DNA of 13,394 bases, from IMG/VR virus record IMGVR_UViG_3300029305_011610, positions 1-13,394 of that record. One strand, given 5' to 3'. A model generated the notes under the pieces. It was not told the DNA's origin, did no database searches, and worked only from the letters and a program-made list of their open reading frames with translations. Shown piece after piece: positions 708 to 6,414 of the stretch (position 1 is the first letter of the stretch; each line of letters begins with the position of its first letter). The position numbers and the translations under genes were made by a program. The stretch comes from a virus (Duplodnaviria > Heunggongvirae > Uroviricota > Caudoviricetes).

Positions 708-1172
708 TTACTTAACGCGAATCCAATGGTCGTCTTCGTTGCATCTATCCCAGACACTGGGAAACAAATTGTTGGGGTTATTATCGCATTTAACAACTGT
801 GCCGACAGGAAGGAAAGCTTCAGACATACTCATTATGAAAGCATTCGCCATTTCGTCTTCAATACTTGGAGCGCCATTACAAGTGCAGTTGTCATCTTCA
901 CAGTCGCATTTGCACTCTTGTTCGCTTTCAGCACACTCACATTCGTCCTCGCAGTCACATGTGCTACGCTCAGCCGCCTCTCTAATAATATCGTCTGCTG
1001 CAATATCTGCGGCGTCTCTATACTGTCTATATGCTAGCATCACATCGACGGCATAATCTAGGTCGAATTCATCGTCATTCTCAAAGAGATAGTATCGAAG
1101 TTCGTTTTCCAGAAGAGTTTCAACAATTTTAAACTGATTGTAACTAAAATTCATATCAATGTCTCTTTTCAT
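708..1172 (-). CDS. Hypothetical acidic protein with a Cys-rich CxC linker (154 aa)
   Basis: Fills the gap between the MTase and dut on the coding strand. AGGAG SD 8 nt before the ATG. No family recognised. Confidence 0.8.
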   Translation of the reverse strand: MKRDIDMNFSYNQFKIVETLLENELRYYLFENDDEFDLDYAVDVMLAYRQYRDAADIAADDIIREAAERSTCDCEDECECAESEQECKCDCEDDNCTCNGAPSIEDEMANAFIMSMSEAFLPVGTVVKCDNNPNNLFPSVWDRCNEDDHWIRVK

Positions 1173-1191
1173 TTTTCATTCTCCTATTATG

Positions 1192-2358
1192 TTATTTATC
1201 CCATACGATGTACCATCCAGTCTTAGCACCTCCCCCTCCAGCCTCAGCCTTCAGGGTTCTTGCGATGGTAGCATCGTAGATTCTATTTGCGTCACCGTTA
1301 TAGCCACAAATATATCCTATCTGATTCAAACTAATATGCCTGTTGCAATCCCCGTTATCAGAATCGTCCGACATATTATTAGGATTTAGTTTGGATAGCG
1401 CCTTTTCAAATGCACCTATGCCGCTAAAAAATGAGCCCACCTGTAAATCATCAAACAGGGTGGGCATTTCCCGATATAAGTTCTCTAAGATATGTAGTAT
1501 CACATCTACGACAACGCTATTCCCGGCCATCTTGTATAGCTGTGTGTTAGCTCTGTCTCTACCGTCATAGATGTTATGAATTAATGCATTTCTCGCTCGG
1601 TTAAAATCATCATCATCAAAACCGAAGAGCCTCCATGATTCTAGCGGAGTTAGCTTTCGTATACCTGTACCTGCAACTGTACCGTCTCGGATATTCTCCA
1701 TCAGCTCAATCGATGCATCTTCATTAAGGTAATATCGCTTATCAACGCCGTGATCCAGCATGTCATAGAGCATTCGGTGTAATGGTCTCGGATTTGGGAA
1801 TTTAAATGTTCCGCTATCTAAGTCCTTTCGAATAATCACACAATAAACCCGTTCTCTGGATTGAGGGATTCCGTGATCCATTGAATTGATTACATTCCAA
1901 TACACATTATATCCATATTCCTCTAACTCAGATATAAAGGCATCAAAGGTTGGTTTGAACTTATTGCTCGTAATTCCTCTTACATTTTCGTAAATAGCAA
2001 ATCGTGGCATCCTCTCTTTTAATATTCTAAGCCACTCGACGAGCAAAGAAGAGCGACTCTTCTCAATCAGAGAAGAGCCGCATTCCGGACAAATATTTCG
2101 TTTTGAATGATGAATCAGGATCGGGTTATACTCGAAACCGCACTCTATACAAGACCAAGCCGCGCCGTTTTTCTTGCCGGCAATAGAAAAGTCCTGACAT
2201 GGTGAGCCGCCTAGCATCACATTGAAATCAGGCAGTTCTTTTTCATCTACTAGGTTAATGTCTCCTATGTTTTTAGTGCAAGATACATTATGTATAGCGC
2301 AATATGCTTCCGAAGCGTGCTTATCTATTTCGCAAAATAAAACTAAGTCGTAGTCTAT
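1192..2358 (-). CDS. DNA (cytosine-5)-methyltransferase, circularly permuted (388 aa from an ATA start; the ORF track starts late at 2220)
   Basis: Motifs: II FCEID, III GDI, IV GGSPCQDFS, V SSLL, VI ENV, VIII QSRERVY, IX RKLTPLESWRLFGF, X LYKMAGNSVVVDV, then I FFSGIGAF. The frame is open upstream of 2220 (IDYDLVLFCEIDKHASEAYCAIHNVSCTKNIGDINLVDEKELPDFN) back to an in-frame TGA at 2373-2371. Confidence 0.92.
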   Translation of the reverse strand: MDYDLVLFCEIDKHASEAYCAIHNVSCTKNIGDINLVDEKELPDFNVMLGGSPCQDFSIAGKKNGAAWSCIECGFEYNPILIHHSKRNICPECGSSLIEKSRSSLLVEWLRILKERMPRFAIYENVRGITSNKFKPTFDAFISELEEYGYNVYWNVINSMDHGIPQSRERVYCVIIRKDLDSGTFKFPNPRPLHRMLYDMLDHGVDKRYYLNEDASIELMENIRDGTVAGTGIRKLTPLESWRLFGFDDDDFNRARNALIHNIYDGRDRANTQLYKMAGNSVVVDVILHILENLYREMPTLFDDLQVGSFFSGIGAFEKALSKLNPNNMSDDSDNGDCNRHISLNQIGYICGYNGDANRIYDATIARTLKAEAGGGGAKTGWYIVWDK

Positions 2359-2936
2359 ACAACCACCTCCTCACAGAGTAGATCAGGATAATGAGCCATG
2401 ATTAAATCAGCTTGAGGAGCAAATTCACCAAAATACTCTAATTCCCACTTAAGCCTTTGTAAAACAGCATCTTCACGACTTCTAAAAGTCTTTTCAATAT
2501 GTTTATTGTTTCCAAGATATATTTGTGCTCTCCATGAATTAATACATCTCGTGTCTTTTCTTACGCCAATAACGCCATTATTCTTTGCAATCGGTCTATT
2601 CCTAGAATTCCTGCAGTTTTCACGATGTGTACACGTTCGTAAGTTTGACCCCGTGTTATTAAGGGGATCCCCGTCAATGTGGTCAACCATCAAACCATCT
2701 AAACATATTCCTTTAAGTCTCAACACCATCCTGTGCATTGATTCACACCCTTGAGCTTGTGTAGTTCTGATATACCCTGCGCTCATGTGTTGCCAATGAT
2801 ACATTTTAAATATGTCTAAGTATTCTGTATCGAATTTTGCAGTCACAATCTCCCCGTTCTGCTTGTGTATTTCGAGATATGAATAATTCTCATCCGAATA
2901 AAACACGTTTGCACATCTTCTATGCAATCCTCTCAT
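2355..2936 (-). CDS. Free-standing HNH endonuclease with C-terminal AP2-like DNA-binding domain (193 aa)
   Basis: VDHIDGDPLNNTGSNLRTCTHRENCRN is an HNH_3/HNN motif. GVIGV...WRAQIYL...KTFRSREDAVLQRLKWELEYFGEFA is an AP2-like domain. Start placed at the ATG overlapping the upstream stop (ATGA); the GTG at 2966 is an alternative. Confidence 0.9.
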   Translation of the reverse strand: MRGLHRRCANVFYSDENYSYLEIHKQNGEIVTAKFDTEYLDIFKMYHWQHMSAGYIRTTQAQGCESMHRMVLRLKGICLDGLMVDHIDGDPLNNTGSNLRTCTHRENCRNSRNRPIAKNNGVIGVRKDTRCINSWRAQIYLGNNKHIEKTFRSREDAVLQRLKWELEYFGEFAPQADLIMAHYPDLLCEEVVV

Positions 2937-3127
2937 CTTGTCGCAATCCAAAGGCCGCAGTGGCACATTCCTTCTTGATTGTTTTCAATCTGTTCTCTAA
3001 ATTCTTTACACATACATTTTGTATCTGCGTTCTTGACAATTACGCACGGGCAATAATTACCATTTTCTTTTAATCTTGCTTTTATAATTTCAACATGTTC
3101 TTTATCTGGATTTAAAATTACTTTCAT
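2933..3127 (-). CDS. Ferredoxin:thioredoxin reductase catalytic (beta) chain-like [4Fe-4S] protein, minimal (64 aa)
   Basis: CPC...CMC...CHC triplets match the CPC/CPC/CHC signature of FTR catalytic subunits. TAATG coupling to nrdG. Confidence 0.85.
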   Translation of the reverse strand: MKVILNPDKEHVEIIKARLKENGNYCPCVIVKNADTKCMCKEFREQIENNQEGMCHCGLWIATR

Positions 3128-3612
3128 TATGATATCCTCTCTGCGTATTGATTATCTGATACTAAATAAACACCAAGCACATCGTCGTAGTGAGCTTCTT
3201 GGCTAGGGTAATACCTGCCGAACTTAACAACAATGTTTTGGAACATACTTAACATTGCTATTTTCCCTTCTATTTCTGACTTGTTATAACCTGTGTAAAT
3301 TACAACATCATCGTCACATCCATATTCGATTCTCAGTTTACTGATTAACGAAAACAATTCCCCATATTGATCCATTGGTTCAAGGCCGCCGAATACAATC
3401 GCCGATGTGATGGGGTTGTGTAAATACCGATTTATGATTTCCTCATCAGAAACTTCGTGGGTGGCAGTATTTTGCCACCCACTATTTTGACATATTGAGT
3501 TATCTAGCCCTTGTTCTCGCCAACATTTACCGTTACAGGAAATCGTGCCTATGAACATAGATGATTTTTTGTAATTTACAAAGTCTTCATCAGCTATTGT
3601 TTTTATTCTCAT
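3127..3612 (-). CDS. nrdG: Anaerobic ribonucleotide reductase activating enzyme (radical SAM; 161 aa)
   Basis: Directly follows nrdD. Motifs: EDFVNYKK, C-x3-C-x10-C, IVFGGLEP, VIYTGY, VKFGRY, LVSDNQYA. Confidence 0.9.
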   Translation of the reverse strand: MRIKTIADEDFVNYKKSSMFIGTISCNGKCWREQGLDNSICQNSGWQNTATHEVSDEEIINRYLHNPITSAIVFGGLEPMDQYGELFSLISKLRIEYGCDDDVVIYTGYNKSEIEGKIAMLSMFQNIVVKFGRYYPSQEAHYDDVLGVYLVSDNQYAERIS

Positions 3613-5539: not shown

Positions 5540-5740
5540 TTATTGTTCATTAATCCAGTCAGATGCTGGTTTAAAATCAAGAAGCTTTCCGTCCACACAC
5601 AGAACGGGTACTTGCGTAATGCCGATTTGAAGCATTTCTTCCACAGAATCATTGACCGAATACACAATTTTCTTTGCATCTAACTTTTTCTTTAGAACAT
5701 TACATTTCGGACATCCAGTTGAATACAAAACTACACTCAT
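5540..5740 (-). CDS. Glutaredoxin/NrdH-like redoxin (66 aa)
   Basis: LYSTGCPKCNVLKKKL (CxxC) and TQVPVL (cis-Pro motif). AAGGAG SD 8 nt before ATG 5740; ATG 5746 (TGATG overlap) is an alternative start. Confidence 0.88.
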   Translation of the reverse strand: MSVVLYSTGCPKCNVLKKKLDAKKIVYSVNDSVEEMLQIGITQVPVLCVDGKLLDFKPASDWINEQ

Positions 5741-5745
5741 ACGCA

Positions 5746-6414
5746 TCACTCCTTAAAATAAGTCTCTACAAACGCTGTAGAACAAACTGTTTTTACAATC
5801 AAATCCATATACTCTGGTGATAGTCCCTTAGCCTTTTCAATAAACTCTTCCAGTTCATCATTGTAAGACAGCGTGCAAATCTCGAATGCAATATCATCCC
5901 AATCATCAACTCTATAAATGCCGTGAGCTTCGCAATCAAAAACTGCATTATGAGGGGCGCTCATAAGAAGTTTTACATAATCACCGTCGATCAAATTATG
6001 AGGAGCGTCATCAATTAACACATCTCCTTTAATCATTTGCTTTTTCTGAGCAATAATTACATTCTTCCATGTTAAATACGGAAAGTGTCTAAACAGCGCT
6101 CTGTTCATTTTTTCTTTTAATGTTCCTAAGCCAGAGGCAGTTACTATGTACACCTCGTGTCCCTGTTCAATCATCCATTTCACAGCATGAACTGCTCCTT
6201 GCTTTGGACGAACTCTATCCCAGAAATTTGGATCCTTCAATGGAGCATGCACTTGTTCCTTAGTCAAAGTTGGATAGAACTTTTCAACGCTCCATTCATT
6301 AATATCTTCATGGCTCACACTAGTTCCATGCCATTCGTTCAGACATCCGACCCATTCTTTGAGCATATTTGTAAGCGTGTCATCAAAATCGATTAGAATC
6401 TTAAGTTTCTTCAT
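5746..6414 (-). CDS. 5'(3')-deoxyribonucleotidase, NT5C/HAD family (222 aa)
   Basis: ILIDFDDTL (HAD motif I), YIVTAS, K...W, KKQMIKGDVLIDDAPHN, APHN, RVDDW. Confidence 0.88.
   Translation of the reverse strand: MKKLKILIDFDDTLTNMLKEWVGCLNEWHGTSVSHEDINEWSVEKFYPTLTKEQVHAPLKDPNFWDRVRPKQGAVHAVKWMIEQGHEVYIVTASGLGTLKEKMNRALFRHFPYLTWKNVIIAQKKQMIKGDVLIDDAPHNLIDGDYVKLLMSAPHNAVFDCEAHGIYRVDDWDDIAFEICTLSYNDELEEFIEKAKGLSPEYMDLIVKTVCSTAFVETYFKE

Follow-up and report, generated by a model that had tools for sequence, protein, structure and literature searches.

Can a C5-cytosine methyltransferase (MTase) whose chain begins at motif II, with no motif I ahead of it, be a complete and working enzyme? This question is raised by a gene on the minus strand (positions 1195-2358) of a 13,394-nucleotide (nt) stretch of Caudoviricetes DNA, hereafter the window, which is the first 13.4 kb of the 122,929-bp IMG/VR provirus record IMGVR_UViG_3300029305_011610. 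Among DNA methyltransferases, the C5-MTases count as the most uniform class, with a canonical order from motif I to motif X and the target-recognition domain (TRD) between motifs VIII and IX. The window protein does not follow this order; it runs from motif II to motif X, then motif I, and then a TRD. It is a C5-MTase with a new natural topology that is real and conserved, and it is probably active. We propose that it is a functional, phage-encoded orphan enzyme of a large natural permuted family, with a relocated tail TRD, an ATA start codon and a protective role, and we give this reading a probability of about 0.75.

Gene, motif order and family membership

A single open frame lies on the minus strand directly past TGA 2373-2371 (window 2370-1192 was translated). 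The coding sequence and its conserved parts are given below, with the basis of each in brackets; residues are numbered from the ATA codon at 2358-2356.

1195..2358, minus strand: whole coding sequence of the rearranged C5-cytosine MTase, 388 amino acids (aa), stop codon TAA 1194-1192 (PF00145, TIGR00675, AlphaFold2 model, M.HhaI superposition)
2323..2337, minus strand: motif II, FCEID, residues 8-12, the earliest conserved motif of the chain (sequence; residue 1 of the model equals M.HhaI residue 31 and M.MpeI residue 36)
Residues 32-34, minus strand: motif III, GDI (sequence)
2185..2211, minus strand: motif IV, GGSPCQDFS, residues 50-58, with the catalytic Cys54 (sequence, conservation, phmmer)
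2080..2151, minus strand: zinc (Zn) ribbon CxxC...CxxC (C70, C73, C90, C93) in the catalytic loop between motifs IV and V (all four Cys invariant in 81 sequences)
Residues 124-126, minus strand: motif VI, ENV (sequence)
1849..1866, minus strand: motif VIII, PQSRER, residues 165-170 (P165, Q166, R168 and R170 invariant)
1618..1659, minus strand: motif IX, RKLTPLESWRLFGF (RKLTPLE..GF, residues 234-247; sequence, conservation)
1501..1542, minus strand: motif X, QLYKMAGNSVVVDV (AGNSVVV, residues 278-284; sequence, conservation, phmmer)
1447..1467, minus strand: X-I junction, MPTLFDD, starting at Met298 (M298, P299, L301 and F302 at least 90% conserved)
1396..1446, minus strand: motif I unit, LQVGSFFSGIGAFEKAL, residues 305-321, made of the strand LQVGSF, the FSGIG loop and the helix AFEKAL (sequence, conservation, AlphaFold2)

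Read from the translation, the motif order is II-III-IV-(Zn ribbon)-V-VI-VIII-IX-X, followed by a clean motif I. A preliminary description of this locus, made from the sequence, had reported a frame that opens past TGA 2373-2371 without an upstream motif I, the order II to X and then I, and motif I at nt 1446-1396, and our analysis bears it out on each of these points. Two of its details needed correction. Motif I does follow motif X, but not at a spacing of about 20 aa: the FxGxG glycines lie ~31 residues past the GN of motif X, and the motif X helix ends only ~8 residues before the motif I strand. The start at 2358 is likewise right in position and wrong in kind, since 2358-2356 is ATA and not a canonical start codon.

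The preliminary description had also suggested an alignment to PF00145 in segments, a structure prediction and a search for homologues with the same motif order, all of which speak for the rearrangement. PF00145 matches with 187 bits against a cut-off of 22, in three pieces covering profile positions 22-83, 83-207 and 268-323; profile positions 1-21, which hold motif I, are missing at the protein N-terminus. The match to TIGR00675 (202 bits, cut-off 100.65) likewise begins at profile position 21, and a profile search of the 122,929-bp record found no further PF00145 piece anywhere in it.

Membership of the C5-MTases is clear from the residues: P53-C54-Q55, E124-N125-V126 and Q166/R168/R170 vary little or not at all among 81 homologues, and the residues that bind S-adenosylmethionine (AdoMet) are present as F311-S-G313-I-G315, E10 of FCEID and G279-N280, with motif I in the C-terminal position. 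The canonical order is a typical layout and not a matter of chemistry; the protein stays in the C5-MTase superfamily as a topological variant. Nor is it of the split, two-subunit type represented by M.AquI, as the frame is uninterrupted in the window, in contigs of four sequencing runs and in homologues. The Zn ribbon, whose segment gives weak Pfam matches to zinc-ribbon and HypA, is a hallmark of the family.

Conservation and purifying selection

The arrangement is not peculiar to the window. All of the 120 best database homologues (45-82% identity) start at motif II and carry motif I after motif X, and none of them is canonical. They include NCBI/UniRef entries from Ruminococcus gnavus (511 aa) and Coprococcus (576 aa), named DNA (cytosine-5-)-methyltransferase by NCBI, which begin at motif II and end shortly past SFFSGIGAFE.AL. 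Relatives are encoded at at least 518 places in species-representative genomes, mostly of gut Clostridia, for example Dysosmobacter, Dorea, Blautia and Faecalimonas. Within motif I, residues S309, F311, S312, G313, I314, G315, A316 and E318 are invariant in 81 sequences. Among phages, tblastn finds relatives of ~35% identity at best, and megablast of window 1000-3200 gives no match in GenBank phages. Two-piece tblastn matches in Deep Blue-like phages were considered as cases of the same architecture and rejected, being really two adjacent, separate MTase genes.

Contigs from four runs in four studies reach across the gene from its start, through the shortened variable region and the X-I junction, to the tail, with zero indels or joints. 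A 26-kb contig from a sheep metagenome carries 17 substitutions and no indels, with 9 of the 16 changes inside the gene synonymous, and 13 studies of animal faeces and sheep metagenomes contain near-identical DNA. A more distant comparison is offered by a syntenic phage contig, L005, at 82% protein identity with synonymous sites near saturation. Against it, the ratio of nonsynonymous to synonymous substitution rates (dN/dS) is 0.054 for codons 1-46, 0.047 for the core, 0.082 for the junction with motif I and 0.075 for the tail TRD. As dN/dS is low in every part, the whole gene is under purifying selection.

Predicted fold and the X-I junction

The AlphaFold2 model has a mean predicted local distance difference test score (pLDDT) of 88.5 and a predicted template modelling score (pTM) of 0.90, and the C-terminal FSGIG strand (305-310) and helix (316-323) are predicted with a pLDDT of 94-98. 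In VIA-align, model residues 1-300 superpose on M.HhaI 31-324 (Z 22.6, root-mean-square deviation 2.4 Å, 244 residues), and the model also superposes on M.MpeI, from residue 36. The model thus suggests that the C-terminal segment supplies the canonical residues 1-30 of M.HhaI, namely beta-1, the FxGxG loop and alpha-A. Foldseek searches of the PDB and of AlphaFold Database clusters return canonical C5-MTases or fragments only; sequential aligners of this kind cannot show permuted parts.

The junction points to how such a chain may have arisen. The family consensus ...LY.A-MPYLFDDL.VGSFFSGIG reads like a C-terminus joined to a former N-terminus, and its Met, at least 90% conserved (Met298 in the window protein), may be a relic of the ancestral start. 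This is what an origin by duplication and truncation would predict, and it agrees with the permutation-by-duplication model put forward in the preliminary description.

Met298 also lends itself to another explanation, in which the tail with motif I and the TRD acts in trans, as a separate product translated from Met298, or by a domain swap within an obligate dimer, each protomer's Rossmann sheet being completed by the C-terminal strand of the other. Indeed, Met298 is nearly invariant and is followed by an apparent canonical MTase N-terminus, the linker in the tail is long and flexible, and fragments of split C5-MTases can complement each other (PMC5944983). However, the X-I junction is in frame and free of stop codons both in the window and in the 120 best homologues, no clear Shine-Dalgarno site precedes the Met298 codon in the window, and the monomer model is confident throughout. 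We consider action in trans or by swap unlikely.

A relocated target-recognition domain

Three further features of the gene concern target recognition:

1666..1848, minus strand: variable region that separates motif VIII from motif IX, shortened to 63 aa and without a recognition module (pairwise alignment, clade length comparison)
1336..1395, minus strand: acidic, Asn-rich linker, SKLNPNNMSDDSDNGDCNRH (length and sequence vary among homologues; pLDDT ~72)
1195..1335, minus strand: C-terminal M.HhaI-like TRD, ISLNQIGYICGYNGDANRIYDATIARTLKAEAGGGGAKTGWYIVWDK (phmmer, dN/dS, docking, comparison with homologue P0021)

In phmmer, residues 350-385 align to the recognition hairpins 231-267 of M.HhaI. 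The usual seat of these hairpins in the chain is empty: compared with L005, the VIII-IX region has lost a CITxxYxKG-type module through a clean in-frame deletion of 27 codons between T226 and V227 (nt 1681/1680), a site without indels across the four runs. L005 itself carries this internal module as well as a tail TRD. Expressed in M.HhaI residues, the segment order is 31-224, 271-327, 1-30, linker, 225-270. No simple circular permutation gives this order, as the TRD has moved behind motif I too; the circular permutation named in the preliminary description is right in that motif I moved behind motif X, and incomplete in that the TRD hairpins stand behind motif I as well. The protein also differs from the multispecific phage type, with tandem TRDs between motifs VIII and IX, in having a single C-terminal TRD.

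Prediction of the tail (residues 338-388) as a chain of its own docked it on the core, scoring 0.80 where the best control scored 0.01; among 80 solved complexes this mark is reached by 58, and among 110 mismatched pairs by 2. Three runs share at least 91% of contacts, and the partner pLDDT is at least 75. In the predicted complex, T368/L369 touch Q166-E169 of motif VIII, and W382-I384 pair with the motif IX strand R233-T236, so that the docked tail would lie against motifs VIII, IX and X, the canonical seat of a TRD. Because structures of M.HhaI-like C5-MTases have already been solved, the docking shows likeness and not proof.

Comparison with relatives supports the tail TRD. Homologue P0021 has the same TRD module at the canonical VIII-IX position and no tail. 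The VIII-IX region is minimal (63-64 aa) in three clade members, the window protein, P0007 and P0095, and all three keep a tail TRD; in P0010 and P0012, which have no tail, this region is longer, at 96 and 114 aa. The tail-TRD proteins, together with P0010 and P0012, form one side of a split from the main family with a support of 100/99. A search with a tail profile through 1.8 billion representatives (50% clustering) gave only ~18 full-length matches in a single stretch, many matches being fragments, and the tail-TRD subclade is therefore small. In counting tails, regular expressions for TL-type motifs missed the ALKA and NLTA tails, and the counts were corrected by eye.

Two side observations concern recognition modules elsewhere in the family. 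First, the tails of P0005, P0008 and P0029 string together two or three TRD-like modules of different kinds (CPTLRAQTHGNPP; an HhaI-like module; IKQATKQGF...CPTLTAQ), and these strings resemble the TRD arrays of multispecific Bacillus phage MTases. Second, at the locus 893-2560 of contig L094, a member of the same Zn-ribbon family, P0098, shows the order IX-X-I-II..VIII and lacks a TRD at its end. Downstream of it at this locus, TRD-like peptides (GIAPTIKAVTYKDP, ICPCIPASTYKDP) are encoded by three small open reading frames (ORFs) in different frames (2114-2230, 2227-2394 and 2372-2560). These may be TRDs that stand alone, or else a variable region broken by a frameshift; in the former case, recognition might be supplied to the TRD-less relative in trans.

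Where the gene starts

The 5' end of the gene involves three features:

2363..2370, minus strand: Shine-Dalgarno site GGAGGTGG, 4-7 nt upstream of ATA (read from the sequence; the same Shine-Dalgarno site and ATA are found in L005)
2356..2358, minus strand: putative ATA start codon (homologues have Met at the aligned position, as in MDFNLALFCE and MNYKTALFCE)
2355..2966, minus strand: HNH_3 homing-endonuclease gene, free-standing and AP2-like in its C-terminal part; it does not belong to the enzyme (PF13392, phrog_99)

There is no ATG, GTG or TTG between TGA 2373-2371 and GTG 2220, which means that codons 1-46 precede the first canonical start, and yet their protein sequence is conserved. The contigs of the four runs keep the same ATA. 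At the homologous position stand ATA in L005 (3861-3863), ATC in contig L010 (~3098-3100) and ATT in contig L012 (~2975-2977), each of them, like the ATA of the window, 5-7 nt behind GGAGG, and other relatives have TTG or ATG there, also behind GGAGG. From these sequences we infer initiation at ATA, which is perhaps coupled to termination of the HNH gene, whose stop codon TAG (2357-2355) overlaps the ATA (ATAG). The HNH gene lies between an FeThRed_B-like ORF and the MTase gene; it is present in L005 and absent in contig L009, where the MTase comes directly after the FeThRed_B-like ORF and starts at ATG (MDFNLALFCE...) 20 nt past it. Since L009 starts at the same place without an HNH gene, a chain that begins at motif II is the native form, and the HNH gene was inserted later. 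The tail TRD, the non-canonical start and the late arrival of the HNH gene had all escaped the preliminary description.

Gene callers mis-start genes of this MTase clade, and database proteins begin at an internal ATG (P0003), at a TTG (P0004) or inside the upstream gene (P0006). In the last case, an uncalled frame at L010 2719-3070, upstream of the MTase, is the end of an N6-adenine-MTase-like protein (NPPF motif), and the database start of P0006 lies within it.

The missing start codon could be taken as a sign of decay. The gene would then be a relic, deprived of its start codon and internal TRD and by now neither expressed nor active, as the lack of a canonical start before GTG 2220, the 27-codon deletion relative to L005 and the HNH gene inserted immediately upstream might suggest. 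A relic, however, would not be expected to keep a dN/dS of ~0.05 over the whole gene, codons 1-46 included, or the Shine-Dalgarno site and ATA shared with L005 despite near-saturated synonymous divergence. ATC and ATT stand behind GGAGG in other lineages, the frame is intact in four independent runs and in a diverged variant, and the deletion is in frame, with two other lineages of equally short VIII-IX region also keeping the tail TRD. Decay is thus an improbable account of this gene.

Another possibility is that the true N-terminus lies further upstream, with the MTase fused to the HNH gene or an exon spliced around it, by way of a frameshift or an intron. The ATAG overlap and the frequent location of HNH genes in introns would fit. 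Nothing upstream encodes motif I, however, the neighbours there being the FeThRed_B-like ORF and NrdG; L009, L010 and L012, which have no HNH gene, start at the same position; and there is no slippery site between TGA 2373-2371 and ATA. A fusion or splice is very unlikely, and an intron or intein around the HNH gene was dropped as a candidate, given the lack of an upstream motif I and the common start of the HNH-less relatives. Finally, tandem C5-MTase genes do exist in some phages such as Bacillus phage Deep Blue, but an artefact of assembly or annotation, by which an N-terminal motif I was lost (the case that the preliminary description had held would count against it) or the tail of a neighbouring MTase gene was wrongly joined, can be dismissed, as the four runs in four studies, the close homologues, the same motif order in many other independent assemblies and the absence of another PF00145 piece in the record all speak against it.

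Comparison with known methyltransferases

With canonical C5-MTases such as M.HhaI (PDB 1hmy, 1fjx), the window protein shares all catalytic and AdoMet motifs and the predicted fold, and its tail TRD keeps the equivalents of R240 and T250-L251. It differs in that the equivalents of residues 1-30 follow motif X and those of 225-270 come last, in the Zn ribbon added to the catalytic loop, and in changed equivalents of Q237, E239 and Y254 in the tail TRD. As these three differ, the target site need not be GCGC.

The multispecific Bacillus phage C5-MTases (SPR, phi3T, SPbeta) resemble it in being phage-encoded and in having modular, exchangeable TRDs. In those enzymes, a canonical I-X protein carries the TRD array between its motifs VIII and IX, whereas in the subclade of the window protein the TRD or array hangs after motif I at the C-terminus. 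Plant DRM2 is a natural eukaryotic C5-MTase in which motif X is covalently followed by motif I; its cut lies between motifs V and VI, and it is not known to be closely related.

Natural permutants among the known enzymes, M.BssHII, M.Alw26I, M2.Eco31I, M.Esp3I and M2.BsaI (type H; zeta class / class F), have their cut within the variable region, which puts motifs IX-X before I-VIII (PMC5944983; preprint 10.1101/2023.12.13.571470). Of the relatives of the window protein, P0098 does have such an order. The known permutants share with the window protein the covalent passage from X to I and a presumed origin by tandem duplication and truncation. The window protein differs in that it is cut between motifs I and II, starts at II and has IX-X after VIII, with the TRD relocated as well. 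A search by Slaska-Kiss et al. (2018) of 20,677 REBASE entries for motif X before motif I found 27 enzymes, all with the variable-region cut; the authors stated that other permutation patterns are apparently absent in nature, and concluded that evolution prefers the two domains to stay whole (PMC5944983). A 2025 topology classification places m5C enzymes in classes C and F only. The preliminary description had set the cut between motifs I and II, with X and I covalently linked, apart from the M.BssHII and M.Alw26I types. This distinction agrees with the survey, which lists the natural type H only, and is upheld by the 120 homologues, by purifying selection and by a coherent predicted fold.

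Engineered permutants come closer. The laboratory constructs cp35 M.MpeI and cp33 M.SssI are active in vivo (PMC5944983) and by residue numbers are cut in the same region, residue 1 of our model being M.MpeI 36; they differ in that the TRD was left in place, and according to the same paper the 20,677 REBASE entries hold no natural counterpart of them. A literature search of open-access text found no description of a natural C5-MTase cut between motifs I and II. The system is undescribed in this sense, as had been supposed, but it is a large family and not a one-off. A paper on phage MT/TET glycosylation was discarded as precedent, since 'permutation' has an unrelated sense there.

Proposed explanation and its implications

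We propose the following for the family of gut Clostridia and their phages. The chain would begin at strand beta-2 (motif II) and run through motif X, and the beta-1/FxGxG/alpha-A unit would then fold back into the middle of the Rossmann sheet, beside the motif X helix. In the phage subclade of the window, hairpins of the M.HhaI-type TRD follow motif I on the acidic linker and would dock, singly tethered, into the usual seat between motifs VIII and IX; with the internal module of the variable region deleted, the tail TRD would be the sole recognition element of the window enzyme. Translation, probably weak, would start from ATA 2358-2356, which a strong Shine-Dalgarno site precedes, and the enzyme would methylate a short site in the phage DNA, thus protecting it from host restriction.

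Four points weigh against this proposal. The gene has no canonical start codon, and its expression could be very low. The predicted occupancy of the beta-1 slot rests on confidence values and on the uncovered residues 1-30 of M.HhaI, not on contacts. The docking result may reflect the predictor's memory of solved C5-MTase structures. Lastly, we know of no experimental precedent for a singly tethered TRD that works in cis.

There is also a more far-reaching reading, for and against which the balance is about even: C5-MTases can work with both the beta-1/alpha-A unit and the TRD at the C-terminus, the TRD being a singly tethered docking cassette, in a rearrangement that is not circular. With cassette arrays such as those of P0005, P0008 and P0029, specificity could then be exchanged at the gene's 3' end, which would be a new way for phage MTases to become multispecific. 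That a natural family with its cut between motifs I and II is widespread would mean that a second topology is viable in vivo, matching the active engineered permutant, and the subclade with a C-terminal TRD suggests that one covalent tether suffices for the recognition domain. A single tether matters for the evolution of specificity, for designing methyltransferases that are split or targeted, and for automatic annotation; in this family, gene callers mis-start genes and profile models report fragments.

Genomic surroundings

The MTase gene belongs to a minus-strand module of nucleotide metabolism and replication, with genes for DNA polymerase III alpha, ThyA, DHFR, deoxynucleoside monophosphate (dNMP) kinase, ClpP, PhoH, NT5C, glutaredoxin, NrdD and NrdG. 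The module also holds the FeThRed_B-like small ORF, the HNH_3 gene, the MTase gene, an acidic Cys-rich ORF, a dUTPase gene and an HTH_17 excisionase-like gene, and the syntenic contig L005 runs on into an integrase.

Just downstream of the MTase gene, the acidic ORF at 708-1172 (minus strand) encodes 154 aa with a dense run of Cys, Glu and Asp, CDCEDECECAESEQECKCDCEDDNCTC. It belongs to no Pfam or PHROG family, and a gene of 184 aa stands at the same place in L005. On the other side, the FeThRed_B-like ORF at 2933-3127 (minus strand) encodes a Cys-rich protein of 64 aa resembling the beta subunit of ferredoxin-thioredoxin reductase (PF02943, phrog_38239) and adjoins NrdG and NrdD. Together with the glutaredoxin gene at 5540-5749, it may provide a phage redox chain for the anaerobic reductase.

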